Positions 3,299-49,851 of a DNA stretch of 62,133 bases are shown here, in pieces. This DNA comes from a virus. The stretch is taken from IMG/VR virus record IMGVR_UViG_3300046747_000361. One strand, 5' to 3'. A program made the translations under genes and the position numbers. Position 1 is the first letter of the stretch. Every line of letters begins with the position of its first letter. Under the pieces are notes generated by a model, which had not been told where the DNA came from, did not search any database, and saw only the letters and a list, made by a program, of their open reading frames with translations.

Positions 3299-5079
3299 GA
3301 GTTGACAGTTGATAGATCACTCACGCACCAGTCACAGAGCAGCAGACGTGAGCTTGCGTTGCGCCCGAGTGCGCGCTCTGCGATCGCACCGGTTCTCGCC
3401 GCCGTCACGGCCTCCCAGTTCTCGCGCACAGTGAGAACGAAGGTCACTTCGACTGTTGGATCTTTCTGGCCCCTACGGGCGGTCCGGCCTATTGACTGGT
3501 CGAGCTCGGTGGACGAAGGTGGGGGTGTGATGTATAGGTTCTTCGACCACCTGTTTTGCAGGTTGCGACCCAGCATATTTGGTCGAACGGCGAGGACTGC
3601 ACCGGTGCGACCACTGAAGGCTTCGATTGAGCCGTGGTTAGCATCACATCCATTCGCGTGAAAGAACGGCATGTCGGCGAGCTGTGCCAGCTTGCGCCCG
3701 ACGGTTGGTTGCGTGACCCACACAAGGCCACGCTCACTGGCGAGCCATTCTGCCGCAAACTGCAAAACAGACAAGTCAAACCATTCCGTTTTTGTCGTGG
3801 GCTTGAAAGTTGGCTCGATCAACGTCCACGCATCGAGCAGGCCACCGTCGTCGATCTCACCGCGCCTAACAGCAGCCTTTACTTGGGCGGGTGTATCCAG
3901 GCCATACGTCTGCTCGTTGCCTACAATCGACCTGACGAAAGCGGACCACAATGCTCGCGTCTCGCGCCACTCGAGCGGCGGGATCGGGTCGAGCACCTTC
4001 GCGTATCCCGCGCCCAACTGCTTCAGGATCAGCGGCTTCGAATACAGCTCCTCGAAGCACCTCCCGTCGGGGAGAATTAGATCGTGCCAAGCCGAGTCGA
4101 CGAGGTCGTCCATCGCGGGGGTCATGTCAACTCGACAGTCAGCGATGTAAATCGAACAATCGATCGACTCGGCGCTACGGCTGTAGATATTGCCGCGCGT
4201 CTCTTCTACTCTCCGACCCACGCCCTCTCGGCACGCGGTCAGGTCTACCCCCCCTGAGCTGAATCGCGTCAGTGCCCCGAGAGGGCGTCTTTGTCCGCGC
4301 ACGCGAACGTTGAGCGCCTCGCACCACTCGCGAAGCACATCCGGCTCGCGTGGCAATGGAGAGTTTTCACCGAGCAGTAAATCCTGGACGTGGGCGTACT
4401 GGTCGAGGTCCACGCCAGGCGTGGCTGTGAGCACAACGACCGCGACTTCGGGGTGCGCCTCCTTATAGCGACGCAGGCGGCGGAAACGAGCACCCGATGG
4501 GCTTGCGAGGCTGTGCCCCTCGTCCACCACGATCAGGTCAGGCCGTAGCCTGTCCAGGTAGTCAGCGTGAGAAGCGAGTGACAGCTTTTCGACAGATAGA
4601 AACTTATAGCTGTGGCATATTTCCCAGTCCGTAGCCAACGCACGGAACTCTCTGACTGTCTTGTCTATGAGTCTGGCGTAGTTCAGAAATAGCGGAGTTT
4701 TTGCCTCGAGCAGAACTGGCGCCAGGGCCGTCACGAGTGTCTTGCCGCCGCCGAGACTGGCGATGACGTTGCAGGTACGAAGCTCCTCGATCTCGGCGAG
4801 AGCGGCGGCTTGCATCTCGAGCAGCCGGACACCTGGGTTCTTGGCAAACCGCGCCGTGAGCCGGTCGACGTGGTTCTGTGCGTCCTGCCAGCGCCGCCGT
4901 GGTAGCGCTTCGATGCGCTCGAACTCGAACGACTCGCGGACTGGTTCGGACAAAAAAATACGGCCAAGCGTACTATGCTTGGCCGTGGTGTTAGGATCGT
5001 GCCCCGCTTGCTCTAGCAGGGCGGCGAAGATAGACATGTGAGAGTGTGTACTAGACTTGGGACAACGCGTGTTGATCAA
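3271..5079 (-). CDS. SF2 DEAD/DEAH-box helicase
   Basis: SLGGGKTLV (Walker A), VVDEGHS (motif II), VLTATPG (motif III), IGRTARRGQ (motif VI). Alternative start ATG 5037. Confidence 0.85.
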   Translation of the reverse strand: MINTRCPKSSTHSHMSIFAALLEQAGHDPNTTAKHSTLGRIFLSEPVRESFEFERIEALPRRRWQDAQNHVDRLTARFAKNPGVRLLEMQAAALAEIEELRTCNVIASLGGGKTLVTALAPVLLEAKTPLFLNYARLIDKTVREFRALATDWEICHSYKFLSVEKLSLASHADYLDRLRPDLIVVDEGHSLASPSGARFRRLRRYKEAHPEVAVVVLTATPGVDLDQYAHVQDLLLGENSPLPREPDVLREWCEALNVRVRGQRRPLGALTRFSSGGVDLTACREGVGRRVEETRGNIYSRSAESIDCSIYIADCRVDMTPAMDDLVDSAWHDLILPDGRCFEELYSKPLILKQLGAGYAKVLDPIPPLEWRETRALWSAFVRSIVGNEQTYGLDTPAQVKAAVRRGEIDDGGLLDAWTLIEPTFKPTTKTEWFDLSVLQFAAEWLASERGLVWVTQPTVGRKLAQLADMPFFHANGCDANHGSIEAFSGRTGAVLAVRPNMLGRNLQNRWSKNLYITPPPSSTELDQSIGRTARRGQKDPTVEVTFVLTVRENWEAVTAARTGAIAERALGRNASSRLLLCDWCVSDLSTVNSWKGARWKR

Positions 5080-5432: not shown

Positions 5433-5654
5433 CTATTCCTTCCTCTCGCACGCGATGGCGGCGTTCGCTGTGAACACAGCCTCGCGAACCTTGCGGATTG
5501 CTGCTGTCTGATCGGCGCTTGGTGGTGTCAGTTGCACGATCACTTCGGCAAACACCTTCGCGGCGTCTCGGATCTCGCGATAGTAATCGGCCTGTCCGAC
5601 CATGGGTGGGTGATAGGTGAACCAGTTGTCGAGGTCAGATTGGGTGATAGTCAT
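5433..5654 (-). CDS. small alpha-helical phage protein (W-F-x-Y-H-P-P ... ANAAIA signature); possible cyclic-nucleotide sponge family member
   Basis: Start reassigned to ATG 5654 (ATGA overlap with the upstream stop). Signature DNWFTYHPP..YYREIRDAAKVFAEVI..TPPSADQTAAIRKVREAVFTANAAIA. Confidence 0.6.
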   Translation of the reverse strand: MTITQSDLDNWFTYHPPMVGQADYYREIRDAAKVFAEVIVQLTPPSADQTAAIRKVREAVFTANAAIACERKE

Positions 5655-5905
5655 GGCGTCTCTATAACCCAGCACCAGCGCCCGTCCATACGCTTTTCGA
5701 CGCCGACCGTTCGGTGCTTGTGCCAGTACGGAGAGACCGGCCCGACTGCGAGGTACACGCCACTGGACGTGTGGAAAACCGCGGCGGTCTTGTGATTGCT
5801 TGTGCTGTCCACCGGCTGATCGTAGAAGTCAGCGATCGTGCCCATGCGTGAGATCGCCTCGAGCGCAGCGGGGTTCATACGGATGCACCTAAGCTTTTGT
5901 GACAT
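5651..5905 (-). CDS. hypothetical protein
   Basis: ORF track; alternative start 5878. Confidence 0.5.
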   Translation of the reverse strand: MSQKLRCIRMNPAALEAISRMGTIADFYDQPVDSTSNHKTAAVFHTSSGVYLAVGPVSPYWHKHRTVGVEKRMDGRWCWVIETP

Positions 5906-7872: not shown

Positions 7873-10230
7873 ATGCACGTTACTGTAAGCCTGTTTGAAA
7901 ATGTCAAGTCAACCCGCGCAGCACGCGAAACGATCGACTTCGGTTCGTTCCTTGCTGACTTCCGTGAGCCACCGACGAGCGAACTCGAGCCGACGCCCGA
8001 GAACGCTCGTGTGCTCAAACTAAGCGCGCCTGCTTTCGCGCCCGCTCTGTTCCGAGAGGACAGACGCAAAAAAAGCAACATTGAACTTGCACAAGTACTG
8101 GCATACGACATTGACGAGCAGATTGACCCGGCGCAACTGAGTGCACGACTGCAGAGACGAGGCATCTCGTACTGCGTGCACAGCACCACGAGCGGGAAAG
8201 GGGTGCACGTCTTGATACCGCTGGCCCGGCCTGTCGATGGCGAGACGTACTTGCGCTATTGGGACGAAGCGAAGGGGCTGTTTTACGGGATTGCCGTCGA
8301 CATGTCGAAGCGTGGGCCTGAGTCACTGTTCTTCGCGCCACGCATCTTCGAAGCTCGACGTGATTCGTATTACTTCGATTGTGTCACTGACGCGCCGTTC
8401 TTGGGATCGTCGGGCTTCAGGCCGTTTAAGCCTGAGCTCACGGGCGTGGACCGTTACGTGGAAGAAGTACGGGTGTGTTCTGATAAGCACACAACCGTAA
8501 ACAGGATCGGGTTTGTGCTTGGACTGCTCGGTCTCGAGCTCGAGGACGTGAAGACGCGATTGCTGGGAGCGTTGCGCGAGAATACGACGAGTACGCCGGT
8601 AATCGATTGGGTTAGTGCTGAGAACACAATCGTAAAAGCTTGGGGTGATGGAGCGGCGCAGAAGGAGGCGGACGACGCACGGCCCAAGTTCATCCCGGAC
8701 GCAGCAAAAAGCACTGGAAAACGCGTGCTAAAAGAGGCTGTGACTGGGATTGGGAAGGGAGAGGTACTTGGGCCGTGGGCGTATCGCGTGGGGCAATTCG
8801 TGCCGCACGTGCTCGAGTACGAGTTGGTTTTGGATGAACTTCGGGGAGCTTGGGAGCGCGCGAAGAACCACGATACTCGGTCGCTTGACGATGCTGTTAG
8901 GGAGATTGTGTCAGGTCTCGACGGGGGAAGACACAACCCGGTCGGAGTGCATGAGGAGTGGCAGAAGGACCTGAAGCTGACACCCGATGGCTTGGGATTT
9001 CATGCAGGCGAAAACAACGTGCACATAGTTTTGGAGAAGCATCCCGACCTTCTCAACCTGGCAGCGTTCGATGTGCGAGACGGGGCACCAGTCTATCTGA
9101 CTGCGCCTCCCTGGCATGCCGGTCAAAAGCTTGCGTATCCGAGGCGGTTGGAAGACTCGGACCGGCAGCGATTGGCACGATGGGTACGCGATCAGCTGGG
9201 CGTGGTGAACGTCAAGCCTGCGACTGCGCTCGAGGCGCTCATCGACCTGGCGAACGAGAACAAGCGCGACGCATTGCTTGATTACTTCAAGTCGGTGCCG
9301 ACTGCGGAAGGGGTCGACACGATCGAGAGTGTGCTCATTCGGACGATGGGAGCGGAGGACTCGGCTTATGTGAGAGCGGTAAGCAAAAAGTGGCTGATTG
9401 GGCTTGTGGCCCGACAGTTCGATCCTGGTTGCAAAATGGACACTGTTCTAATCCTGGTGGGCGATCAGGGGATGGCTAAGTCGTGGTTTTTTAAGGAGAT
9501 TTTTCCCGTCGAGCTGCAAAACCAGGCTTACTGTGACAGTGTAAATTTACTGCGACTTGACAAAGACCAGGTCACAAAACTGAACCGCTACGCCTGCGTT
9601 GAGCTTCCCGAGCTGGCGGGCATGTCCAAGGCCGATGTCGAGACAATCAAGATGAACGTGACCCAACAGCGCGCAGATGAGCGGCTTGCCTACGCGAGAC
9701 TTCATGCGCAGTTTCCGCGCAGAAGCGTGTTCGGCGGGACCACGAATCGGGATGATTTCTTGCGCGACCCTACAGGGGGGCGCCGGTTCTGGCCAATCAC
9801 CGTGACACGGGCGCTGGACAGGGAGGCGCTACGAGCTCTTAGGGGGCGTTTGTGGAGCGAGGCGGTAGGTGCATACCTCCGAGGCGAGGAGTGGCATCTG
9901 GGAGGCGAAGAGGAGGCACTGGCGAGGGAAATCAGGGAGGGCTTCGAAGAGGAGGACGTACTCACGGAGAAAGTTCGGGATGTCCTGGCTTGCTGGCCTG
10001 GCGATTCGAAGTTTGATGACGCGTCGTACGCGATGAAATCCTGGCAGCTCGAAGGTTCGCGCGTAGTTCGTGCACGTCTTGGGCAGTTGCTGCTCAAGCT
10101 TGGGTACGACTTGGCGGATAAACCGCGAGAGCGGAGGCTTGCTGACTGTCTGCGCAGACTCAAGTGGAACTGTCGGATTGAGCAACACGACGGTATTCGG
10201 TATCGGGTTTGGTACGAAAAGGGGAAGTAA
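7873..10230 (+). CDS. AEP primase-polymerase fused to VirE/D5-type P-loop helicase
   Basis: AYDIDEQID and GVHVLIPL (prim-pol motifs). LILVGDQGMAKSWFF (Walker A). C-terminal VirE-like region. Start taken as ATG 7873. Confidence 0.75.
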   Translation: MHVTVSLFENVKSTRAARETIDFGSFLADFREPPTSELEPTPENARVLKLSAPAFAPALFREDRRKKSNIELAQVLAYDIDEQIDPAQLSARLQRRGISYCVHSTTSGKGVHVLIPLARPVDGETYLRYWDEAKGLFYGIAVDMSKRGPESLFFAPRIFEARRDSYYFDCVTDAPFLGSSGFRPFKPELTGVDRYVEEVRVCSDKHTTVNRIGFVLGLLGLELEDVKTRLLGALRENTTSTPVIDWVSAENTIVKAWGDGAAQKEADDARPKFIPDAAKSTGKRVLKEAVTGIGKGEVLGPWAYRVGQFVPHVLEYELVLDELRGAWERAKNHDTRSLDDAVREIVSGLDGGRHNPVGVHEEWQKDLKLTPDGLGFHAGENNVHIVLEKHPDLLNLAAFDVRDGAPVYLTAPPWHAGQKLAYPRRLEDSDRQRLARWVRDQLGVVNVKPATALEALIDLANENKRDALLDYFKSVPTAEGVDTIESVLIRTMGAEDSAYVRAVSKKWLIGLVARQFDPGCKMDTVLILVGDQGMAKSWFFKEIFPVELQNQAYCDSVNLLRLDKDQVTKLNRYACVELPELAGMSKADVETIKMNVTQQRADERLAYARLHAQFPRRSVFGGTTNRDDFLRDPTGGRRFWPITVTRALDREALRALRGRLWSEAVGAYLRGEEWHLGGEEEALAREIREGFEEEDVLTEKVRDVLACWPGDSKFDDASYAMKSWQLEGSRVVRARLGQLLLKLGYDLADKPRERRLADCLRRLKWNCRIEQHDGIRYRVWYEKGK

Positions 10231-11414: not shown

Positions 11415-11563
11415 GATTGTTGTGACCTCCAGTGAATGATAGTGCGTGGATAGATGCAGGTGCGTGGGCAAATGTATTGCGTTGCGAGATAGAGATCGGT
11501 GCGTCTGACTATCAGAAATGTACAGGCATGGGGGCAGCCTGTCATGTCCGGGTCGCGCATCAT
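11411..11563 (-). CDS. 50-aa Cys-motif protein, paralogous to the C-terminus of 11778..12134
   Basis: My translation: MMRDPDMTGCPHACTFLIVRRTDLYLATQYICPRTCIYPRTIIHWRSQQS. Compare ...TGCPHACDYLIVRTTSHYDATQLVCPRNCVYPKTDIHWRAS. Below the track size cut-off. Confidence 0.6.
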   Translation of the reverse strand: MMRDPDMTGCPHACTFLIVRRTDLYLATQYICPRTCIYPRTIIHWRSQQS

Positions 11564-11580
11564 GTAGGGCATTGCATAGG

Positions 11581-11781
11581 TCATGTGTACTTGTCCGCGC
11601 GTACAACGCCCGACGGCAATACAAGCCAGCCAGTCACGTTGCCGGTGCTGTCGATTGTGTTGTCAAGTACGCCCGCGTAAGTGCCATCGGACAGCTCGCG
11701 CACGCGTGGCTGTGTGGCGGCCTTACGGGATGCCTTGAGTGCGCTTGCTTGTTTCTTCCAACCAATTGTTGACGTGATCAT
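11581..11781 (-). CDS. hypothetical protein
   Basis: ORF track; ATGA-type packing. Confidence 0.5.
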   Translation of the reverse strand: MITSTIGWKKQASALKASRKAATQPRVRELSDGTYAGVLDNTIDSTGNVTGWLVLPSGVVRADKYT

Positions 11782-12134
11782 GATGCCCGCCAGTGAATGT
11801 CGGTTTTGGGGTAGACACAGTTGCGTGGACAGACGAGTTGTGTTGCGTCGTAATGCGACGTGGTTCTGACAATCAGATAGTCACATGCATGTGGGCAACC
11901 AGTGGAAGTGTCGATAAGCATGAAGGGCATTGCATAGCGCGCTTCCTGTGCCTCGAACGCGGTCACCTCCCACGTACCAGCCTCAATCGCGGCACGTTGA
12001 TTGTCATCGGCACATTGCGCGAGTAACTCAACACGACAAGCCTCGATGGCGACGTGTGCAAGCTCGGACGAATCGTAGTCGCCCATGGGAATGCTTGACT
12101 GTTTGTCGAGTGAAACCCAGTAGAGTCGAGTCAC
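11778..12134 (-). CDS. hypothetical protein with C-terminal CPHAC...CPRNC motif
   Basis: ORF track; paralogy with 11411..11563. Confidence 0.6.
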   Translation of the reverse strand: MTRLYWVSLDKQSSIPMGDYDSSELAHVAIEACRVELLAQCADDNQRAAIEAGTWEVTAFEAQEARYAMPFMLIDTSTGCPHACDYLIVRTTSHYDATQLVCPRNCVYPKTDIHWRAS

Positions 12135-12337
12135 AATTGTCCCCCGATGTAAGCACAGTTGTCAGCTATTGCACGCACTTGCGCAGCATCTACCTCTGGC
12201 TCACTTACGCAAGCCTGACAGCCACGACACGCCCAAGTACCACTGCGTAGCTTGATGAGACCTCGATTCCCTTCGTGATCGTGGCCGCAACGCACATACA
12301 GCGCGTACCCGGCCGTTGATGTTAGAACCGCAGTCAT
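12131..12337 (-). CDS. hypothetical Cys/His-rich protein
   Basis: ORF track; CGHDH...CRGCQAC. Confidence 0.5.
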   Translation of the reverse strand: MTAVLTSTAGYALYVRCGHDHEGNRGLIKLRSGTWACRGCQACVSEPEVDAAQVRAIADNCAYIGGQL

Positions 12338-12519
12338 GGAAACCTCACATTCACGTGCCAGTGCTTACCGTTGTGCTCGCCCCAAAACTGCCATTGTCTA
12401 GCCCCTTTCACGTAATCACGAGTCAGGCTCAATAGCGTGTCGAGGTCACACTCATTGAACTCGAGTGTGATTGTGTTGTCTGTTTCGATGCTGCGTGTAA
12501 TCGCGTCGTGTGCGGTCAT
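12334..12519 (-). CDS. hypothetical protein
   Basis: ORF track. Confidence 0.5.
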   Translation of the reverse strand: MTAHDAITRSIETDNTITLEFNECDLDTLLSLTRDYVKGARQWQFWGEHNGKHWHVNVRFP

Positions 12520-12638
12520 CAGTATGCGCTCCTTCCTGGCTCGTAACAGACCTCGATCATGAGGCCCATGTCAAAACCGCAAGCGTGAAAGACGAGTTGC
12601 CCGAGATAGTTGATTGCAAATGGGTGAGCGTAATTCAT
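12519..12638 (-). CDS. 39-aa hypothetical protein
   Basis: AAGGAG upstream of ATG 12638. Stop overlaps the next start (ATGA). Below the track cut-off. Confidence 0.4.
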   Translation of the reverse strand: MNYAHPFAINYLGQLVFHACGFDMGLMIEVCYEPGRSAY

Positions 12639-12706
12639 GTAACTCCTTGGTCTGACACAGCCACACAGACGTTCGAGCGTCCTACTCGAGCGCTAGTGCA
12701 GGTGAG

Positions 12707-13030
12707 TCAGAAACTCGCGTCTCGATATTTACGACGTGCGCCGATCCGATAGTGTACGGAGTTGTGTGAATCAGCGCTGCCTGCTTCGTGCCAGCGCCCG
12801 CTTTTACGCAGGGTTACCTCCACCACATGCCCTTTTGGATCTGGCTTGTAGGTGTACTCAAGGGTCGTACCCATGGGCACAGGCCCACTGCCGACACGGA
12901 TCGCTTCATCTGCCTGCAACCAGAGCGTCTTACCGTTCTCACTCACCTTGATTACCGTGTACGGATTCGTGTCCGTAAACAGAACCTGCGTCGCGCCCAC
13001 GCCTACTTCGATGTGTTGTTTGTCAGTCAT
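12707..13030 (-). CDS. hypothetical protein
   Basis: ORF track. Confidence 0.55.
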   Translation of the reverse strand: MTDKQHIEVGVGATQVLFTDTNPYTVIKVSENGKTLWLQADEAIRVGSGPVPMGTTLEYTYKPDPKGHVVEVTLRKSGRWHEAGSADSHNSVHYRIGARRKYRDASF

Positions 13031-13115
13031 ATTCTGTCCTTTAAACTATCGTGCCACACATGAACCCGGTCTAGGACTCATTGGCTAAGATCGGGTTACA
13101 GTGTCGGATGACGGT

Positions 13116-13490
13116 TCACTTGCTCACGCGATACTCGGTCGGATCCTCACCTGCACGCCAAGCGGCGCGAAGGTCGTAAGGTGACGCAGTGTCGTTGCGC
13201 CCCGTTGCAGCAAACCATTCTTGAAATGTCAGACCTTCCGCATTGGTCCGTGAATTCGCGCGTGGGAAGTTGAACACGAACACGGCATCGCCATTCGGCA
13301 AGACCCCCTCAACCAGTCCCGCGCCCGACCATTCGTGCTTGGCGCAGAATGCTTGCGCCGCTTCAAGCTTGGGATCGTGTGCGCCGTGATCGTAACTGAC
13401 AGTCATACTCGGCACACCTTCCGCACTCACGCGCAGACGTGAACCCTTAGTCTCACTCGGTCCGAAATACTTGACTACAATCGCCTTCAT
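13116..13490 (-). CDS. hypothetical protein (first gene downstream of hammerhead A)
   Basis: ORF track; GGAGTGAGGA Shine-Dalgarno upstream. Confidence 0.6.
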   Translation of the reverse strand: MKAIVVKYFGPSETKGSRLRVSAEGVPSMTVSYDHGAHDPKLEAAQAFCAKHEWSGAGLVEGVLPNGDAVFVFNFPRANSRTNAEGLTFQEWFAATGRNDTASPYDLRAAWRAGEDPTEYRVSK

Positions 13491-13509
13491 TGTGTCCTCA
13501 CTCCAGTTA

Positions 13510-13558
13510 GAACCATTGCCGTCCTAGCATTCGGCCTGCGTGGCCTCATCAGTGGCTC
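13510..13558 (-). ncRNA. hammerhead ribozyme, type I topology, variant copy A (U15.1-A16.1)
   Basis: Minus-strand RNA GAGCCA|CUGAUGA|GGCC-ACGCA-GGCC|GAA|U-GC(U)-AGGAC-(G)GC-A|A|UGGUUC. Confidence 0.6.
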
Positions 13559-14054
13559 ACAGTGACAGTTTCGACATAACATCCATGTCAGTCTGAAACG
13601 CGGCAAGCAGACGCGGCAGTCGTGCCTCTAGCCATGCCTTCAAGTCTTCACGCGACATGCTCCACAGCATCTCGATCGGGAAGTCATCCTCAAGCGCGCC
13701 AAGCACAATGGTGCTGGCCAGTGCGCTAGGTGCGAGTGCTCGATCTTCGGGCCTGCCATATTTTGCACGCCCATGGTACGAGTCGTGCCAGAAAAGCCCG
13801 TTAGCGACGTAGTGCATCGGTCCTTCAGTCGAGGTGAGATGCCAGCGCACGAACGGTGCTAGCTCTGGGAAATAGCGCGCGACCTGCTCATGTTGACAGC
13901 CTCCTGACAACCAGCCGCGCTCACTTACGCCCGGATGTTTGTACTCGTCCAAAGTCACCGAAAAGTGTGGGGCTTGGTCACCGATCTTGTGCAGTCCATA
14001 CGTCGCGTGTACATAGGTACCGTCAGTGGTTCTACGAAACTTGGTTGTTTTCAT
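13557..14054 (-). CDS. hypothetical protein
   Basis: ORF track. Its UGA stop lies inside hammerhead helix I. Confidence 0.6.
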   Translation of the reverse strand: MKTTKFRRTTDGTYVHATYGLHKIGDQAPHFSVTLDEYKHPGVSERGWLSGGCQHEQVARYFPELAPFVRWHLTSTEGPMHYVANGLFWHDSYHGRAKYGRPEDRALAPSALASTIVLGALEDDFPIEMLWSMSREDLKAWLEARLPRLLAAFQTDMDVMSKLSL

Positions 14055-14132
14055 GACTCTTACTCCTATATCTGTGAGACCTAATCGTCTCGCCTAGGCT
14101 CTCGAACTATCCCGAGAGCCATGGCGAACCGA

Positions 14133-14441
14133 CTAGACCGCTTTAGCTGGCCGCATTTTTACGTAGACACCCGGACCGTGAAACCGCCCAAAGTACATGC
14201 GACCGTCGATGCCCTTGGCGCGGAATGGGGTCAGCGTCGACGACAGCCAGCCGCCTGTCTTGAATGGCGTGCCTGTGCTGGTGATGGTTGCGAGCGTTTC
14301 CCCCATCCAAGTTGTGATGCGCTTGCCGTCCGAGCTCACGTATGCCGTGTACGGACCGGCCTCACGCGTGAGGAAATTGGCAACTTCCTGCTTGCTCGTT
14401 TCCTGATTCTTTGCGTCGATTTGTGCTTGAATTTCTGACAT
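14133..14441 (-). CDS. hypothetical protein
   Basis: ORF track. Confidence 0.55.
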   Translation of the reverse strand: MSEIQAQIDAKNQETSKQEVANFLTREAGPYTAYVSSDGKRITTWMGETLATITSTGTPFKTGGWLSSTLTPFRAKGIDGRMYFGRFHGPGVYVKMRPAKAV

Positions 14442-14452
14442 GGCTCAACCCT

Positions 14453-14644
14453 CTAGAACTGGTGTGCGAATGCTTCGTCCCAAGTCTTGTAAGCTGGCGA
14501 GACTTCGAGCCGCGTCATTTTCCGAAACTCGGACTTCGGAAACAGTCGCGACAGTTTCGTGATGGGTTGTTTGGCCTGTGCCTCAGTGACAACCAAGCCG
14601 GCAGTGTACTGATTGTCACCAATAAATCGGATCTTGTGGTACAT
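14453..14644 (-). CDS. hypothetical protein (63 aa, downstream of hammerhead B)
   Basis: Start reassigned to ATG 14644 (GGAGTGAGC ATG). The longer track ORF would read through the ribozyme. Confidence 0.55.
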   Translation of the reverse strand: MYHKIRFIGDNQYTAGLVVTEAQAKQPITKLSRLFPKSEFRKMTRLEVSPAYKTWDEAFAHQF

Positions 14645-14660
14645 GCTCACTCCGTTGTTA

Positions 14661-14711
14661 GAACCGTATGCCAATCCTGGCATTTCGCTGTTCCCAGCTC
14701 ATCAGCGGTTC
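14661..14711 (-). ncRNA. hammerhead ribozyme, type I topology, copy B
   Basis: GAACCG|CUGAUGA|GCUG-GGAA-CAGC|GAA|A-UGCC-AGGAUU-GGCA-U|A|CGGUUC; the full conserved core is present. Confidence 0.85.
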
Positions 14712-15090
14712 AGTAATCGCCCGTCATGTAGTTCGCAGTGCTCTCACGCTGTGCCTTAGGCAATCGCCGCTCCCAACGTTCGTACCAATCGCCCCACGTG
14801 GTGAAGTGAAACTGTGCGCCGCAATGGTCATAGAGCAGAGTCAAGCCATACGTGTCACCTGTGTTCACGTATGACGCGTGTAGTCGGTGACTGCCGGCGC
14901 CACGATCCTCTGCAAGCCGCTCGATTCCGTGCCCGTGTAGGATCTCATCGGCAATCGCCAGCTTGACGCTGATTTTGGACGCGCCGATGAGTATGGCGTG
15001 CAGATCTTCGAAATCGCGCTCTGGATGCTCGGACAAGTGGTCAATAATGTGTCCAACTTCCCGGCGCAGTCGTGCCTTACTGATCTTCAT
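14710..15090 (-). CDS. hypothetical protein
   Basis: ORF track. Confidence 0.6.
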   Translation of the reverse strand: MKISKARLRREVGHIIDHLSEHPERDFEDLHAILIGASKISVKLAIADEILHGHGIERLAEDRGAGSHRLHASYVNTGDTYGLTLLYDHCGAQFHFTTWGDWYERWERRLPKAQRESTANYMTGDY

Positions 15091-15145
15091 ATTCCTACCC
15101 TTTCACGCCCCTAAGCCCGTTCCAACTCTTGAGTAAGAGCTAGAT
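15091..15145 (-). repeat. structured leader element, family P copy 1
   Basis: Minus strand: nested hairpin followed by GGGCUUAGGGGCGUGAAAGGGUAGGAAU-AUG. Homologous to 16918..16970. Confidence 0.5.
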
Positions 15146-15160
15146 ACGGGCGATTAGGTG

Positions 15161-15430
15161 TTAGGCGATGCGTCCGACGTGGTTTGCTGTGATGGTGATA
15201 CGGTCGAACACGGATGCCTCGGGATCCTCGTTGTATTGCTCGACACCGTCGTCACCCGCTAGCCACTTCGCACCCGCGCGCGACCAGACGCAAGTGTCCA
15301 CGTTGACTGGCTTGCCTTGCATCGCAAGTAGCGTTGCGTGTGTCACCGCTGCGTCGAAGTGCTTGAAAACTTTGGCGCCATTGTTCGTGTCGACGTGAAA
15401 CTCAACATCCTTATGCGATTTGCGCGACAT
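15161..15430 (-). CDS. hypothetical protein (89 aa, downstream of hammerhead C)
   Basis: Start reassigned to ATG 15430 (GGAGUGUGAAU AUG). Confidence 0.55.
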   Translation of the reverse strand: MSRKSHKDVEFHVDTNNGAKVFKHFDAAVTHATLLAMQGKPVNVDTCVWSRAGAKWLAGDDGVEQYNEDPEASVFDRITITANHVGRIA

Positions 15431-15446
15431 ATTCACACTCCAGTTA

Positions 15447-15499
15447 GAACCATATGCGCGCTCCTGCGCATTTCGACCTTCCGGTCTCATCAGTGGTTC
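15447..15499 (-). ncRNA. hammerhead ribozyme, type I topology, copy C
   Basis: GAACCA|CUGAUGA|GACC-GGAA-GGUC|GAA|A-UGCGC-AGGAGC-GCGCA-U|A|UGGUUC; the full conserved core is present. Confidence 0.85.
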
Positions 15500-15758
15500 A
15501 GCGCGGTCCGTGGCCTGGCTTGCACTTGCTCATGTCCGAGCAAGACACGACTTCGCAGCGCAACTCATGTCCACACCGATTCTCACGGTTAGGCAACATG
15601 CGCACCGAAAACGACTTGAATAGCTCGTTATACTCGAGACCGAAGTCGTAGCCCGTCGCATCGGCTTTCTGTTGCGCCTCTGCTTTTGCGGCTGGATAGC
15701 GCTCTTGAAAGGCGGCGGTTTCGTAGGCTGGAACTGTTTTTTTTACTTTGCGTGCCAT
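15498..15758 (-). CDS. hypothetical protein
   Basis: ORF track. UGA stop inside hammerhead helix I. Confidence 0.6.
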   Translation of the reverse strand: MARKVKKTVPAYETAAFQERYPAAKAEAQQKADATGYDFGLEYNELFKSFSVRMLPNRENRCGHELRCEVVSCSDMSKCKPGHGPR

Positions 15759-15835
15759 ACTTCTCTCTCGTTTTCCCTGTTAGTGTCACCCTAGCGCCTA
15801 GAGCTCTCCCTATGCGCTAGCGTCAGACTACAGAG
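15759..15835 (-). repeat. intergenic long-hairpin element, family S copy 1
   Basis: About 77-nt unit repeated three times. Imperfect hairpin of roughly 27 bp (15777..15833) plus conserved leader ...ACAGGGAAAACGAGAGAGAAGU-AUG. Confidence 0.7.
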
Positions 15836-15998
15836 CTTGATTTGCGATAATGTATCGAATTTCAACAGGCTTCAGTTTGCGGCATCGTTTCCACGCGCTG
15901 CGTTGTTTGGCGTGCTTGGCACAGTAGACAAACGAGCCATCCGTGTGCGTCGCCGATTCACAGCAATCGCAAGTGAATTCGCATTTTATGTTGTTCAT
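15828..15998 (-). CDS. 56-aa Cys-rich hypothetical protein
   Basis: My translation MNNIKCEFTCDCCESATHTDGSFVYCAKHAKQRSAWKRCRKLKPVEIRYIIANQAL. Flanked by family S elements. Confidence 0.5.
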   Translation of the reverse strand: MNNIKCEFTCDCCESATHTDGSFVYCAKHAKQRSAWKRCRKLKPVEIRYIIANQAL

Positions 15999-16070
15999 GT
16001 TTCTCACTTCCCTGTCAGTGCCACCCTAGCGCTTAGAGCTGTCCCTATGCGCTAGCGTCAGACTACAGAG
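15999..16070 (-). repeat. family S copy 2
   Basis: Hairpin 16012..16068. Substitutions relative to copy 1 are pairing-compatible (A-U to G.U). Confidence 0.7.
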
Positions 16071-16233
16071 TATCCCGTGGCTCGTATCCGCGGACTGGTG
16101 TGTGTACGCCGCACTTCTCTAGTTCGGCACGCGTGCCAACAAACCAGCCAGGCGAAAACACACTCCAGCCGTAGAACAACTCTTTATGCGCAGCGATTGC
16201 GCGTGCCTCTTCGACAGTCTTGGTTTTAAACAT
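16063..16233 (-). CDS. 56-aa hypothetical protein
   Basis: Start reassigned to ATG 16233 (MFKTKTVEEARAIAAHKEL...). Confidence 0.5.
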   Translation of the reverse strand: MFKTKTVEEARAIAAHKELFYGWSVFSPGWFVGTRAELEKCGVHTPVRGYEPRDTL

Positions 16234-16309
16234 ACTTGTCTCTCGTTTCCCTGTCAGTGTCACTCTAGCGCCTAGAGCTGTCTCTAGTCGCTAGCGTCAG
16301 ACTACAGAG
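16234..16309 (-). repeat. family S copy 3
   Basis: Hairpin 16251..16307; a G.U pair in copy 1 becomes A-U here. Confidence 0.7.
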
Positions 16310-16489
16310 TCACTCACCACTTGGTAGCTTGTCGAGCCATGCTGAGTACCGCGACCACAGTCCGGGGCGTTTCGCGATTAGTGCGCGTAGTTCTTTTGCA
16401 GTCAGTCCAGTTTCAACCAAGTGCAAGAATGTCTCGTTACACTCTGCGGACTGGCGAAATGCTTTCTCGTAATACCAGCGTTGCGTCAT
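16310..16489 (-). CDS. 59-aa hypothetical protein
   Basis: My translation MTQRWYYEKAFRQSAECNETFLHLVETGLTAKELRALIAKRPGLWSRYSAWLDKLPSGE. Below the track cut-off. Confidence 0.5.
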   Translation of the reverse strand: MTQRWYYEKAFRQSAECNETFLHLVETGLTAKELRALIAKRPGLWSRYSAWLDKLPSGE

Positions 16490-16528
16490 GTTCTCTCTAT
16501 TCTGTTCAGAACTCGCGCAGCGACCGGA

Positions 16529-16744
16529 CTAGATTTGCCCGCCATTGCCGCCACGATTATACGTGTGCTCAACACTGTTAGAATGCGTTGTTTCGACCAC
16601 GCGCCGACCATGACTACCTCCACACGCATTGAACGCCAGAATCAAACAACCGATGATTATTATCGGTATCAGCAGATACAGAAACAGACACACAGCGAGT
16701 ATCGCGAGCGCTGCAAAAAACAGAAACCAAAACGCGGTCATCAT
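16529..16744 (-). CDS. 71-aa membrane protein
   Basis: Start reassigned to ATG 16744 (MMTAFWFLFFAALAILAVCLFLYLLIPIIIIGCLILAF...). Confidence 0.55.
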   Translation of the reverse strand: MMTAFWFLFFAALAILAVCLFLYLLIPIIIIGCLILAFNACGGSHGRRVVETTHSNSVEHTYNRGGNGGQI

Positions 16745-16917
16745 TGAGCGCGCTCCAGTCTCGACTCCAGGTAACTGATTGCAGCCGTGAGGCGTGTGCA
16801 GCGCCAATGCCAAAGATCCGCGCCCGATAGGTCGTCTTGTGCGAGTTTCGAGTCTCGCACTTGTGCGTGCCATTCATGGCGGCGTGTCAACACTTCGAGC
16901 CATTCAGCTGTGCGCAT
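16741..16917 (-). CDS. 58-aa hypothetical protein, first gene of the leftward early operon
   Basis: My translation MRTAEWLEVLTRRHEWHAQVRDSKLAQDDL... ATGA overlap with the next gene; family P leader upstream. Confidence 0.5.
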   Translation of the reverse strand: MRTAEWLEVLTRRHEWHAQVRDSKLAQDDLSGADLWHWRCTRLTAAISYLESRLERAQ

Positions 16918-16970
16918 TTATACTACCCTCTCAACGCCCTAAGCCCACCCCGACTCTCACAGTGTGAGAT
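16918..16970 (-). repeat. structured leader element, family P copy 2
   Basis: Contains the 7-bp-arm inverted repeat TCTCACA-G-TGTGAGA (16955..16969) nested in a longer stem, then GGGCUUAGGGCGUUGAGAGGGUAGUAUAA-AUG. Confidence 0.5.
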
Positions 16971-17874
16971 AGTCAGGTGTGGGCGTGGGGTTGTGTCCTC
17001 TTTCTAGGGAATGCGCACTGTCACTGCGCACTCAACCTAGCCTTCGTGTCTACCCCAGCACCGTCGTAGCGGTTTCGCCGAGGCTATTCAGTTTTCACAG
17101 AGCAGCGGCCACTAGGCCCGAGACATCCATGTCTCGCGTCGCTTTCCTGCGTACTCGGCTGCGTTTCCGCTTCGCCGCTGCGCGTCTTGCGCATGAGTAG
17201 ACTCTAGCGCGATTGACGCTCAGCGCCACAATTGAGATCTCTTTTTATCCACAAATACGGTAAGATTACACGCACAACGTATTTTGTGGAAATACTGGAA
17301 TTGGACCTCCTTATAGCGCTCGCCGCGCTCGCCTCGACTGCGCACGAGCGCCGCCGCTGAGGCGCCTCGGCCGAGGCCGCCGCCCCCCTGACCAGGCCTG
17401 ACCTCATGCTTGGCGAGCATGCGTCGCCCGCCGCGTCCGTAGTGGTCTCGCGTGCTTGGCGCCTCGGAGCTCGGCGAGACCGCGGTCTCTTCCACAAACC
17501 GAGCGCGAACGCGTGTGAGAGCGCAGCGCCTCTCCTCTGTGCGCAGCGCATGCGTGCAGTGCAGTGGTGTGCGCAGCGCAACCTACACGCGCAGTGCGCT
17601 AGTGTGCGCAGCGCCACCTACACGGCCACCCGCACGCGCGGCGGGCACGGGGGGTGGGGGTACACTTGGGCGCCCCCTGGCTCTAGCGCGCGCCTACGCG
17701 CCATTTCGCGCGTACAAGTCCCAGCCCCAGATCTCGCCCGAGTGCCCAGCCCCAGATCTCACGCCCGTCTTGGTCGGCGTGCACAAGCCCCCCGGCCAAG
17801 TCAGTGAGCACGAACTATGTGCGCGCAATCACACCCTTGTTTGGCTCACGTAAGCTCGGTTACAGTCTCCCGCC
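16971..17874. promoter_or_regulatory. gene-free divergent control region (candidate origin / operators / early promoters)
   Basis: No credible ORF; all track ORFs here are Arg/Ala-rich GC-frame artefacts. Contains direct repeats, 14-bp palindromes and an AT-rich island with an inverted repeat. Confidence 0.6.
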
Positions 17875-18087
17875 ATGAAAGTCAGTGTCACCTTTCACGA
17901 AGAAGGCACACCGATCGCGACTGTGACGTTTCGCAGGTCGGCAAGGTGGTTGCGCCGAGACCGCGTTCAATACAACGCGTGGAGGCGCCAGGTACGCGAG
18001 CGCAAGCACCACGACCCCGACCTGTGGATTCGCGAGAGTCACGCGCGCTGGCGCGAGCATTACAATGGGGGGCGTACACTTGCTTGA
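17875..18087 (+). CDS. small basic hypothetical protein
   Basis: ORF track. First rightward ORF after the control region; overlaps the helicase start. Confidence 0.4.
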   Translation: MKVSVTFHEEGTPIATVTFRRSARWLRRDRVQYNAWRRQVRERKHHDPDLWIRESHARWREHYNGGRTLA

Positions 18088-19849
18088 CACCCCTATCAAA
18101 CTACGGGCCTATGAGGTGGATTGGTTAGCTCGCATTGGCCAATCGACCGCGAATCGTGTGCTGATAGTCGGCCCGACTGGCTCAGGTAAGACGATCATTG
18201 CAGCGCAAGCCATCCGCGCCGCTGTTGCCCTCAATCAGCGCGTGCTGTTCATCGCCCACCGACTCGAGCTCGTGGAGCAAGCGACGAACAAGCTCAAAGA
18301 CGTCGGCGTCGAGGTCGGGCCACGCGTGACAGTCACGACGATTCAGTCGCTCTACAATGAAAGCCCACCCGCGGATCTGATCGTCGTTGACGAAGCCCAC
18401 CACGCGCCAGCTGAGAGCTATAAGGAACTGCTCAAAAAGTACCCGAAAGCCATCATCTACGGCCTGACAGCCACGCCCTTTCGCTGCGATGGTCTGCCTC
18501 TCGACGATCTCTTCGAAGAAATCGTGCCGTCTGCGCCGCCGAGTCAGCTCATTCAGGCGGGATGGCTCTCAAACCCCAAGATTTACACGGTCCCGAGAGA
18601 TCAACGACCAAAACTGCTCGGTCTGCGTCGTCGCGATCATGATTTCGACATGGCTAGTCTCGCGAGAGTCACCGATTTGCCCGAATTGGTCGGATCCGTC
18701 GTCGAACACTACCTCAAATACGCTCATAATCTCCCCACCGTGGTCTACGGCGTGAATATCGCGCACTGCGAGCACATGACGACCGCTTTCAGGCACCAGG
18801 GCGTGCGTGCTGCGACCGTTTACGGGAAGATGCCCCTCGAGTCGCGCGTCCAAGCCCTCGAGATGTTCGCGAACCAAGAACTCGACGTGCTCGTGAACTG
18901 TCAGCTGCTCACTGAGGGGTGGGATTGTCCCACGGCCAGAGCTGCGATCGTCGCGCGCCCGACCCTCAGTGCCGGCTTGTGGTTCCAAATCGTCGGCCGA
19001 ATCACGCGACCAGGCCCGATCCAGCCGATTGTGCTCGATCACGCCGGCAACGCGCTCATGCACGGTCTTCCCCTTCAAGACGTCGAATACACGCTCAAGG
19101 GACGACAGATCAACTCGCGTCCTGACAACGGCGAGAAGGCTTGTCCGAAGTGTCACAACTCAGTCCACGTCGCGAACCGTACTTGTTCCTGGTGCGGGTT
19201 CGAGTGGTGGTCGCCAAACGAGCTCCCCGAAGTAGCGGAAGGCAACCTCGTTCTTCTCACCAAGCGACAGCACAAGCGCCGGTGCGCGTGGCCCGACTGT
19301 CCAACGCCAGAGAAGCTCATACATTCCGAGCGTGAAGGCGCGATGCACATCAAGTGCCAGCCGCTAGCCAACGCGCGCAAGTACACGTGCCAGTACGAGC
19401 ACTGTCTTACACCCGGCAAGCCGCTCTCCCAGAACAACCCGTGGAGCCTTCATCTCAACTGTCGAATGCACAAGAACGGCAGGACGAGCAAGCCAGGCGT
19501 GCGGTGTGCCTACGAGAAGTGTCTCACCCCCGATGTCATCATCCACTCGCGCACGCCAGGTGTGATGCATCGCGCATGTGAGCATCTCGTCGTTCAGTCG
19601 CAGCGCATCTGTCAGTACGACCGGTGCCCCGAACGCGACAAGCTGCTCGCACACAAGGCGCCCTTCCAGGGGATCACGATGCACCGAGCCTGCAAGGCTC
19701 GCTTCAACGCGTACAACAAGAACCCCGACAAGCCACGCTGCAAGACATGTGGCCTGGGTCACGACGATAAACTGATTCGGTACCCAGGCAACGTCTACTA
19801 CTGCGACAAATGCGACAAGTTACGCCGCCGCCGTATCCTTCCGGCGTAA
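18065..19849 (+). CDS. SF2 DEAH-box helicase with C-terminal array of Cys/His zinc-ribbon-like repeats
   Basis: VGPTGSGKT, VVDEAHH, LTATPFR, QLLTEGWDCP, VGRITRPG. C-terminal 230 aa carry 5-6 CxxC/C..C..H..C units. Confidence 0.85.
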   Translation: MGGVHLLDTPIKLRAYEVDWLARIGQSTANRVLIVGPTGSGKTIIAAQAIRAAVALNQRVLFIAHRLELVEQATNKLKDVGVEVGPRVTVTTIQSLYNESPPADLIVVDEAHHAPAESYKELLKKYPKAIIYGLTATPFRCDGLPLDDLFEEIVPSAPPSQLIQAGWLSNPKIYTVPRDQRPKLLGLRRRDHDFDMASLARVTDLPELVGSVVEHYLKYAHNLPTVVYGVNIAHCEHMTTAFRHQGVRAATVYGKMPLESRVQALEMFANQELDVLVNCQLLTEGWDCPTARAAIVARPTLSAGLWFQIVGRITRPGPIQPIVLDHAGNALMHGLPLQDVEYTLKGRQINSRPDNGEKACPKCHNSVHVANRTCSWCGFEWWSPNELPEVAEGNLVLLTKRQHKRRCAWPDCPTPEKLIHSEREGAMHIKCQPLANARKYTCQYEHCLTPGKPLSQNNPWSLHLNCRMHKNGRTSKPGVRCAYEKCLTPDVIIHSRTPGVMHRACEHLVVQSQRICQYDRCPERDKLLAHKAPFQGITMHRACKARFNAYNKNPDKPRCKTCGLGHDDKLIRYPGNVYYCDKCDKLRRRRILPA

Positions 19850-49240: not shown

Positions 49241-49284
49241 TACTGTTGGCTAGCCGCTCGCCTACAAGCCGGATTCGAACCGGG
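49241..49284 (-). ncRNA. third, degenerate permuted tRNA-like module
   Basis: T arm CCCGG-UUCGAAU-CCGGC, then UUGUAGG - 11-nt loop - CCAACAG (5 WC + 1 GU) and UA. No convincing D arm. Confidence 0.3.
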
Positions 49285-49337
49285 TACACAGTTTGGATTT
49301 ATGTAGTGCCTAATGCAAAATTCAGTGGTGGTGCCGG

Positions 49338-49409
49338 TAGCGGGTGTTGGATTCGAACCAACGGCCTCTTGGTTATGAGCCAAGCGAGATGCCACTTCTC
49401 CAACCCGCA
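49338..49409 (-). tRNA. tRNA-Met/Ile2-type (anticodon CAT) with U1-U72 mismatch
   Basis: Hand fold: UGCGGGU-UG-GAGA-AGUGGCA-UCUC-G-CUUGG-CUCAUAA-CCAAG-AGGCC-GUUGG-UUCGAAU-CCAAC-ACCCGCU-A. No encoded CCA. Confidence 0.8.
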
Positions 49410-49421
49410 ATAGTGAGAGTG

Positions 49422-49487
49422 TTACCAGCGAGTAGTCGCTCGAGACTTGTTCATGTAAAAAATGTAGTCCCGAACTGGATCTGGTAA
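49422..49487 (-). ncRNA. short stem-enclosed RNA (possible YrlB-like short Y RNA)
   Basis: Helix UUACCAG (49487..49481) / CUGGUAA (49428..49422) resembles the GUUGAC/GUCAAC helix of the two larger modules. It is followed by the same ...CUCUCACU motif. Confidence 0.25.
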
Positions 49488-49489
49488 CC

Positions 49490-49637
49490 GTGAGAGTGAG
49501 CTGTTGACGAGTAATCGCTGATACAACTACGGCGTTCTACCACTGAACTATACCCCAAAACATCGAGGTAGTTGGATTCGAACCAACGACTTCCGGCTCC
49601 AAATGCGATGTAGTACCAACTGAAATTCAACAGCGAA
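49490..49637 (-). ncRNA. Y RNA-like RNA 2 with circularly permuted tRNA-like core (49534..49587)
   Basis: Order: T arm (GUUGG-UUCGAAU-CCAAC), closed acceptor (UACCUCG-AUGUUU-UGGGGUA, 5 WC + 2 GU), U8A9, D arm (GUUC-AGUGGUA-GAAC). Enclosed by the 8-bp helix GCUGUUGA/UCAACAGC. Confidence 0.45.
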
Positions 49638-49644
49638 AAGGGTG

Positions 49645-49851
49645 CCACCGACGAGTGAGCGTTGACAGTATTTTTTGGAGCTCTACCAACTGAGCTACGT
49701 CGCAACTTGCGAAACAACGGCTGGGCTCGAACCAGCGACCGCCCCATTAGCAGTGGATGTAATGCCAACTAGAAATTCGGTAGCGTAAAGACTGTGACTG
49801 ACTGCTATGCCTGACAGAAAACGGGGGTGTTTGTTGTCAACAGCCAGTCAC
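49645..49851 (-). ncRNA. Y RNA-like RNA 1 with circularly permuted tRNA-like core (49680..49736)
   Basis: Order: T arm (GCUGG-UUCGAGC-CCAGC), closed acceptor (CGUUGUU-UCGCAAGU-UGCGACG), U8A9, D arm (GCUC-AGUUGGUA-GAGC). Enclosed by the helix GGCUGUUGACA/UGUCAACGCUC with a C-C mismatch. Confidence 0.45.

Follow-up and report, generated by a model that had tools for sequence, protein, structure and literature searches.

Short type I hammerheads and interchangeable hairpin cassettes at gene junctions of an uncultivated phage lineage

The virus record IMGVR_UViG_3300046747_000361 of the IMG/VR collection, analysed here over its whole stretch of 62,133 nt (the window), carries at positions 15447-15499 of the minus strand a 53-nt element which reads as a complete type I hammerhead. 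We call it copy C. We are highly confident that copy C is a genuine hammerhead under selection for its core, and we consider it likely that it is a functional ribozyme which constitutively cuts a polycistronic phage message into gene-sized mRNAs. Two further copies are found close by, and at equivalent gene junctions of related phages hammerheads interchange with covarying hairpins.

Hammerhead copies in the window and in related phages

Read as minus-strand RNA, copy C begins with GAACCA (15494-15499). This strand forms an open helix I of 6 bp with UGGUUC (15447-15452), which closes the element, and the pair A1.1-U2.1 lies next to the core. The first core segment CUGAUGA (C3 U4 G5 A6 U7 G8 A9; 15487-15493) is followed by helix II (GACC/GGUC, 4 bp, with a GGAA tetraloop and a G10.1-C11.1 pair; 15475-15486), the second core segment G12 A13 A14 (15472-15474), helix III (AUGCGC/GCGCAU, 6 bp, with the loop AGGAGC; 15454-15471, A15.1 being 15471 and U16.1 being 15454) and A17. 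The order helix I 5′ strand, CUGAUGA, hairpin II, GAA, hairpin III, H17 and helix I 3′ strand is the type I topology. The three helices surround the core without a mispair at 10.1-11.1, 1.1-2.1 or 15.1-16.1, and the sequence agrees with the hammerhead consensus of Perreault et al. (2011) in both core segments, in the pair A15.1-U16.1 and in having no G at H17. Applying the hammerhead consensus to the sequence, the scissile bond is predicted between A17 (15453) and U1.1 (15452).

Immediately 3′ of helix I stands UAAC (15443-15446, minus), and then come the Shine-Dalgarno sequence GGAG (15441-15438) and the AUG (15430-15428) of a downstream 89-aa gene (15161-15430, minus), whose start is called identically in locus L003. 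The leader between the cleavage site and this start codon is thus 22 nt long. On the other side, the UGA stop (15498-15500, minus) of an upstream 86-aa gene (15498-15758) overlaps the first two bases of helix I. An earlier note, made from the letters alone, had proposed copy C as a canonical type I hammerhead. On recounting we obtain the same sequence, coordinates and predicted cleavage position, and every structural part which it named, from the helices and the GGAA loop to the full core with A at H17, can be read in the sequence, as can the distance of 22 nt to the next start codon. Its structural claims are also backed by the comparison with other copies described below, in which the helices covary and the core is invariant except for N7 and a few deviant copies.

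Folded alone, copy C adopts the hammerhead fold both as minimum free energy (MFE) and as centroid structure (-20.6 kcal/mol, z = -3.16), none of 200 shuffled sequences is as stable, and the fold persists in a context of 103 nt. With a covariance model of our own, R1, which was built from six copies, it scores 81.1 bits. An extension of helix I or a sequestration of the Shine-Dalgarno sequence was seen in one 103-nt fold only and is not kept across copies; we discarded both. Likewise we set aside a mini open reading frame at the cleavage site, where A17-U1.1-G1.2 forms an AUG (15451-15453 and 13514-13516, minus) and the AGGA of loop III, 5-7 nt earlier, could serve as its Shine-Dalgarno sequence. 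This AUG is probably incidental, because its frame to the downstream gene varies between copies and the B-type copies have none. Cleavage would split this codon at the scissile bond.

We searched the window with a type I descriptor (CUGANGA, hairpin II, GAA, hairpin III, H17 not G, helix I). It matches three times, at 15447-15499, 14661-14711 and 13510-13558, always on the minus strand and always between cistrons. All three are contained in 2 kb of the coding strand, in gaps between small open reading frames. In 300 dinucleotide-preserving shuffles of the window a loose form of the descriptor (helices of at least 4/3/3 bp) gives a mean of 0.19 matches per window and a strict form (at least 6/4/4 bp) a mean of 0.003. 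Since three are found where 0.003 strict matches are expected, chance is excluded. The other seven CUGAUGA heptamers of the window lie in coding sequence or in start-stop overlaps, and around none of them is there a hammerhead.

Copy B (14661-14711, minus; cleavage predicted between 14667 and 14666) is fully canonical. It scores 80.1 bits with our model, and its MFE structure is the hammerhead fold (z = -3.81). Copy A (13510-13558, minus; cleavage predicted between 13516 and 13515) is a variant with U15.1-A16.1 and a helix III of 4 bp, which scores 50.3 bits (z = -0.86). The U15.1-A16.1 variant occurs naturally and self-cleaves less efficiently (Perreault et al. 2011, PMC3088659). The lineage of copy A is therefore probably weak or decaying, whereas copies B and C are fully canonical.

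The window seems to represent one entire contig of an uncultivated phage. Its phage identity rests on genes for an SU10-like portal protein, a VapE primase, two helicases and a large serine recombinase. Among the catalogued phages of INPHARED, a megablast search with 12500-17500, tblastn with the portal protein and blastn with the hammerhead gave nothing closer than 22% identity. IMG/VR, queried by a flanking protein, the helicase and two DNA patterns, yielded no relative, and in the GTDB genomes neither the hammerhead pattern nor the portal protein has a match. Two pattern matches in IMG/VR were set aside, L001 as a coincidence within coding sequence and L002 as an unrelated hammerhead of type III. 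The latter (IMGVR_UViG_3300029288_003002, about 9075-9130) is an apparent type III hammerhead in its own right, composed of UGCU-C, GGCAAG-UAUA-GCUUGCC, CUGAUGA, GUCC-GUAGCAA-GGAC and GAA-AGCA. The window thus belongs to an uncultivated phage lineage of about 62-65 kb which has no near relative in INPHARED, IMG/VR or the GTDB genomes.

Relatives were obtained from metagenomes. The 165-aa protein encoded upstream of copy A is present in exact form in several JGI and Logan metagenomes, and homologues with 77, 70, 63 and 61% identity lie on contigs of 64, 65, 28 and 6 kb. JGI samples which contain the phage of the window are 3300046709, 3300046461, 3300046796, 3300046740 and 3300046459. The fetched contigs with such homologues are the loci L010-L018. 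Five JGI metagenome loci, L020-L024, were added by means of a DNA pattern of the subfamily, a pattern which is without match in the GTDB genomes or IMG/VR. Descriptor and R1 together give 18 hammerhead copies with 14 distinct sequences. They are distributed over the window, L010, L011 and L020-L024, with two to four per phage in L010, L011 and L024; no hammerhead was found by either in L014-L018. The contigs L012, L013 and L021 end inside hammerheads. These ends do not fall at the scissile bond, and we attribute them to assembly breaks at repeats and not to RNA ends.

In the alignment of the 14 distinct copies 99.4% of the pair cells hold standard pairs, and 6 of the 14 modelled pairs show compensatory double changes (17 cells), one in helix I, three in helix II and two in helix III. 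When the register is slid by 1 to 3 columns in either direction (six controls), pairing drops to 20-37% with no or one double change, and none of 500 column shuffles matches the observed pairing, double changes or covariation score. These counts are supportive and do not amount to a formal probability, because the sequences were aligned by fitting them to the model and because descent and duplication link the copies to one another. In helix I the pair 1.1/2.1 covaries from A-U to G-C, besides two single changes between G-U and U-G; in helix II the double changes affect three of the four pairs, and in helix III the two inner modelled pairs covary.

All complete copies have the same core segments CUGA-GA and GAA. 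Nearly all variation of the core falls on N7 (U, C or G), the single position left free by the hammerhead consensus. Beyond it, U15.1-A16.1 is found in four copies, namely copy A, its orthologues in L010 (L010:1814 or L010:3256) and L024 (L024:6731) and the L010 orthologue of copy C (the other of the two L010 positions), and A10.1 in one copy only, L024:6731. The sequence YGGUUCUAAC, that is the 3′ strand of helix I and the four bases after it, is invariant in 17 of 17 complete copies. We regard the unpaired core as the most telling signature, as free variation at N7 only is what selection for catalysis would predict.

Hammerheads and hairpins at the gene junctions

From about 16.9 kb down to 12.6 kb the minus strand of the window carries a run of small genes. 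A search of PHROGs with ten flanking small proteins returned families of "unknown function" only. The earlier note had placed copy C in an intergenic gap of an early operon. The intergenic place within a same-strand run of small phage genes stands; "early" is a conjecture from the neighbouring replication genes. Within the run there is no enrichment of sigma-70-like promoters or intrinsic terminators, a pattern which is consistent with one long transcript but no proof of it. All hammerhead copies lie in gene orientation, and every copy ends 20-27 nt ahead of a start codon preceded by a Shine-Dalgarno sequence.

Upstream of the run, weak sub-threshold Rfam matches were noted at 17083-17194 and 17521-17637 (minus), to RsmY (18.7 bits, E = 0.29) and BTH_s19 (18.7 bits, E = 0.18). 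The GC-rich stretch at these matches, with its repeated GCGC-containing hairpins, is possibly an operon leader or operator region.

Nearly all intercistronic gaps of the run are 64-85 nt long and strongly structured. Three are the hammerheads and two further gaps are other long hairpins. We distinguish two hairpin families. The one which we call the second family, with the core CGCUAGCG...CGCUAG, occupies the gaps 16234-16309, 15999-16062 and 15759-15827 (minus) and occurs in relatives at L010:1465-1545, L014:7414-7477, L020:5284-5354, L020:5526-5585 and L024:4359-4428. Its members are imperfect hairpins about 45 nt long which read UAGUCUGACGCUAGCG-(stem-loop)-CGCUAGRGUGRCACUGACAGGGA, and their apical stem shows some covariation. 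The family has no Rfam match and may be an RNase III-type processing site.

The third family, GACACUG...GUGUGUGGCAC, fills the gaps 13031-13115 and 12639-12706 (minus). It recurs at L010:2685-2760 and 3713-3798, at L011:3469-3547, 4504-4585 and 5620-5687, within L014:9444-11096, at L016:625-695 and 1307-1390 and at L017:902-996. An invariant lower stem (G)ACACU...GUGUGUGG is followed by a 3-nt internal loop and a variable upper stem, and 10 of the 14 predicted pairs show compensatory changes among 14 instances from five phages.

A YUAGGAYU / CAGGA motif is common to the apical loops of helix III (for example 15460-15465, 14674-14677 and 13521-13525) and to those of many hairpin cassettes (for example L014:10508-10580 and L014:9907-10000). 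A hairpin loop with ANGGA is similar to a binding site of the CsrA/Rsm type or to an exposed Shine-Dalgarno-like sequence. The cassettes could have the motif in common because they descend from one ancestor or because they contact the same protein or the ribosome.

To compare the junctions, flanking proteins were clustered into families and the gaps were read directly. The genes of five families (F1, F3, F6, F7 and F13) have a hammerhead next to them in some phages, and in others a covarying hairpin of 60-90 nt takes its place. The junction after the 165-aa gene (F1) holds a hammerhead in the window, L010 and L024 and a hairpin of the GACAC family in L011, L014 and L016/L017. F7 has hammerheads on both sides in L011/L021 and downstream in L023, and hairpins in L014 and L020. 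Upstream of F6 there is a hammerhead in L011 and a hairpin in the window and L014, and upstream of F13 a hammerhead in L011 and a hairpin in L020. That the same gene junctions hold either element, depending on the phage, speaks for an equivalent task of hammerheads and hairpins in the RNA. The comparison shows, too, that the cassettes sit at mosaic boundaries.

The hammerhead, the "CGCUAGCG" hairpin and the "GACACUG...GUGUGUGGCAC" hairpin can be seen as three interchangeable cassette types. Twister-sister, pistol and hatchet were found as conserved RNAs in the genomic niches of hammerheads, and by the same logic one or both hairpin families could cleave themselves by a motif not described so far. 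We consider this very unlikely. The Rfam models of twister, pistol, hatchet, HDV and the hairpin ribozyme have no match to the other cassettes in scans of the window and of 11500-18100. In appearance the hairpin cassettes are simple long hairpins, for which a role as sites of an endonuclease of the RNase III type is more probable.

Proposed cleavage and alternative readings

Starting from what can be established directly, that is sequence, fold, covariation, core conservation, orientation, placement and interchange with hairpins, we infer catalysis, polycistronic transcription and the consequences for mRNA fate. We suggest that the cleavage proceeds in the following way. Copy C would be transcribed within a long multi-gene message of the minus strand, and the three-helix junction would fold once the 3′ strand of helix I has been transcribed. 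Following established hammerhead chemistry, the 2′-OH of A17 would attack the adjacent phosphate and the internal transesterification would cut the chain at 15453|15452. The upstream 86-aa cistron would then end in a 2′,3′-cyclic phosphate, capped compactly by helices II and III, and the downstream 89-aa cistron would begin with a 5′-OH and a short unstructured leader of 22 nt containing the Shine-Dalgarno sequence. Copies B and A would make the same cut at two other junctions. Hammerheads and hairpin cassettes would thus punctuate the transcript and insulate the stability and translation of each mRNA from its neighbours, by analogy with the RNase III sites of the T7 early region and with the clustered prophage hammerheads which Perreault et al. 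described.

Several points weigh against this reading. With 6 bp and no conserved extension of helix I, copy C is a minimal-looking hammerhead, which would be slow at physiological Mg2+, and inspection of the flanks of the copies revealed no pseudoknot complementarity either. Fast cleavage at physiological Mg2+ requires a tertiary contact between helices I and II, by loop and bulge or by a pseudoknot, and we could identify none; possible partners of such a contact are loop II, (G/U)GAA, and the invariant UAAC which follows helix I. Since copy A and several orthologues have changes that are known to reduce activity, some of the copies may be inactive. Moreover, the fold of the ribozyme would be opened by a ribosome which ends translation at the UGA in helix I.

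The Rfam models, too, stand on this side. The earlier note had proposed a comparison with them and had counted the absence of a hit above the gathering score among the results which would speak against a hammerhead. In gathering-score scans (window, L010, L011 and phage PaP3) the window returns two tRNAs and nothing else, so by the note's own measure the result is formally unfavourable. In sub-threshold scans at E ≤ 10 of 15350-15600 and 11500-18100, copy C reaches 18.7 bits with Hammerhead_3 (RF00008; gathering score 48.5) and 16.5 bits with RAGATH-1-hammerhead (RF03152; 56.3), and copy B 16.4 bits with HH9 (RF02275; 52). None of the six hammerhead copies in L010 and L011 attains a gathering score. 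By the operational rule of Rfam the RNA is therefore outside all curated hammerhead families (RF00163, RF00008, RF02275, RF02276, RF02277 and RF03152).

We judge that the missed threshold reflects a limited sensitivity for this short form and is not evidence against the ribozyme, since the models are built on particular hammerhead subfamilies and give it 16-19 bits. The partial alignments to RF00008, RF02275 and RF03152 put CUGAUGAG and CGAAA in the right places, and the bits are lost on helices and loops which are particular to the curated families. The same kind of scan finds nothing at gathering score in PaP3, although this phage carries an intergenic hammerhead, a core variant, which is experimentally active (PMC3088659). 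It follows that Rfam scans at gathering score overlook short, minimal-looking hammerheads.

An alternative is that copy C is a hammerhead by descent which is no longer catalytic and is kept as a protective pair of hairpins at a 3′ end or as a site for a host or phage endonuclease, the hairpins which replace it serving the same purpose. This would fit with the hairpins that hold the same junctions in relatives, with the erosion of the core in the A lineage (U15.1-A16.1, and A10.1 in L024) and with the lack of an evident tertiary contact. Such a relic, however, would not keep 11 unpaired core nucleotides invariant over 14 distinct sequences while its helices drift and covary, nor would one expect N7 to be the only freely varying core position, as selection for catalysis predicts. 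We therefore regard a purely structural role as unlikely.

The ribozyme could also be active but gated by translation, such that terminating ribosomes hold it unfolded and cleavage occurs only when upstream translation stops. If true, the ribozyme would time the separation or decay of mRNAs in a translation-coupled manner. The UGA stop lies directly at the start of the hammerhead, abutting helix I, in 10 of the 14 distinct copies, and in L010a and L022/L024 the upstream reading frame ends at the UGA within the CUGA core. Regulated cleavage has also been raised for slow phage variants (Perreault et al., PMC3088659). Yet the hairpin cassettes likewise begin at the stop codon, so the overlap may just reflect the compactness of the cassettes, and the hammerhead of L011a/L021 is located 36 nt past the upstream stop codon. 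In our view constitutive cleavage is the better reading and translational gating is improbable.

For phages of the T4 type, promoter-stem-loop boundaries have been proposed. Comparably, the hammerheads might act mainly at the DNA level, as recombination or mosaic-boundary cassettes which shuffle small genes, with the invariant GGUUCUAAC and the Shine-Dalgarno sequence as microhomology. Indeed, the hammerhead before the "MYHKIRF" gene is of the B type in the window but of the C type in L024, the genes that follow the C-type hammerhead are not the same in the window as in L022/L024, and gene order is shuffled between relatives. Three copies in L011 (1782-1838, 2173-2229 and 2513-2569) have identical helices II and III, and those of two copies in L024 (4796-4853 and 5919-5976) are identical or nearly so, whereas the copies of the window differ among themselves. 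Such likeness of the helices within one genome suggests recent duplication or gene conversion among cassettes. A role in recombination leaves the compensatory changes and the strand-specific conservation of the core unexplained, and it is compatible with an RNA function and not an alternative to it. That it is the main role seems to us highly improbable. Finally, a chance resemblance to the hammerhead consensus would account for the missing Rfam match at gathering score, but with three strict matches and covariation over 14 distinct copies it is effectively refuted and its probability negligible.

Relation to known systems

Hammerheads in phage genomes are not new. In prophages, several hammerheads which flank single genes cleave in vitro and in vivo within transcripts of about 2 kb, and a processing of polycistronic RNA was proposed (Perreault et al. 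2011, PLoS Comput Biol, PMC3088659). Clustered examples are known from Clostridium scindens, Azorhizobium caulinodans and the ardA locus of Agrobacterium tumefaciens, and intergenic hammerheads from the phages PaP3 and Bcep176 (PMC3088659). A review of 2019 states that the role of genomically encoded bacterial and phage hammerheads still needs work (PMC6765202). The copies described here resemble those of Perreault et al. in that several lie in gene orientation between small phage genes and have a canonical core with an occasional U15.1-A16.1. They differ in forming a distinct subfamily with an invariant YGGUUCUAAC 3′ arm and a minimal helix I in a different, uncultivated phage lineage; our covariance model of the subfamily has no match in PaP3, including its validated hammerhead. 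A pseudoknot or loop-loop contact, which was described there, is not evident here, and the present copies alternate and exchange across relatives with two families of covarying hairpins. With the Rfam hammerhead families (RF00163 type I, RF00008 type III, RF02275 HH9 and RF03152 RAGATH-1; clan CL00010) they have the core and the three-way junction in common, whereas their scores of 16-19 bits contrast with gathering scores of 48-56.

In the early genes of phage T7, RNase III sites in successive intercistronic gaps yield monocistronic mRNAs with a stable 3′ hairpin. The likeness fits the hairpin cassettes, and for the hammerheads it fits as to function. A hammerhead, however, needs no host enzyme and leaves a 5′-OH and a 2′,3′-cyclic phosphate in place of a 5′-phosphate and a 3′-OH. 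A further parallel is RiboJ, a synthetic insulator in which a self-cleaving hammerhead just upstream of the ribosome-binding site creates a context-independent 5′ leader. Here as well the hammerhead stands just before the ribosome-binding site and would define the downstream leader. RiboJ, though, is derived from type III and stays on the downstream RNA, whereas the type I body would stay on the upstream fragment.

Besides the cassettes, these phages carry other genes of note. A Ro60/TROVE protein with a vWA domain is encoded at 49859-51556 (minus). The 600 nt downstream of it (49250-49850, minus) contain one tRNA-Met-like gene (49336-49409) and separate tRNA-like half modules, D-arm-like TAGCTCAGTTGGTAGAGC and TAGTTCAGTGGTAGAAC and T-arm-like GGTTCGAGCC and GGTTCGAATCC. 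Judged by these modules the region looks like a cluster of Y-RNA (YrlA-like) genes. In a related phage, L014:17165-17383 encodes a small protein with a precomputed Pfam match to Acb2/Tad1 hairpin, a family of anti-CBASS/anti-Thoeris sponges.

In summary, the arrangement has been known in phages since 2011, and the present case is sound and will not surprise a ribozyme specialist. The locus is a clean example, backed by covariation, from a phage lineage without cultured or catalogued relatives. What it adds is the natural exchange of hammerheads with covarying hairpin cassettes at orthologous junctions, and these junctions, with a ribozyme in one phage and a hairpin in another, make the hypothesis of intercistronic punctuation directly testable.

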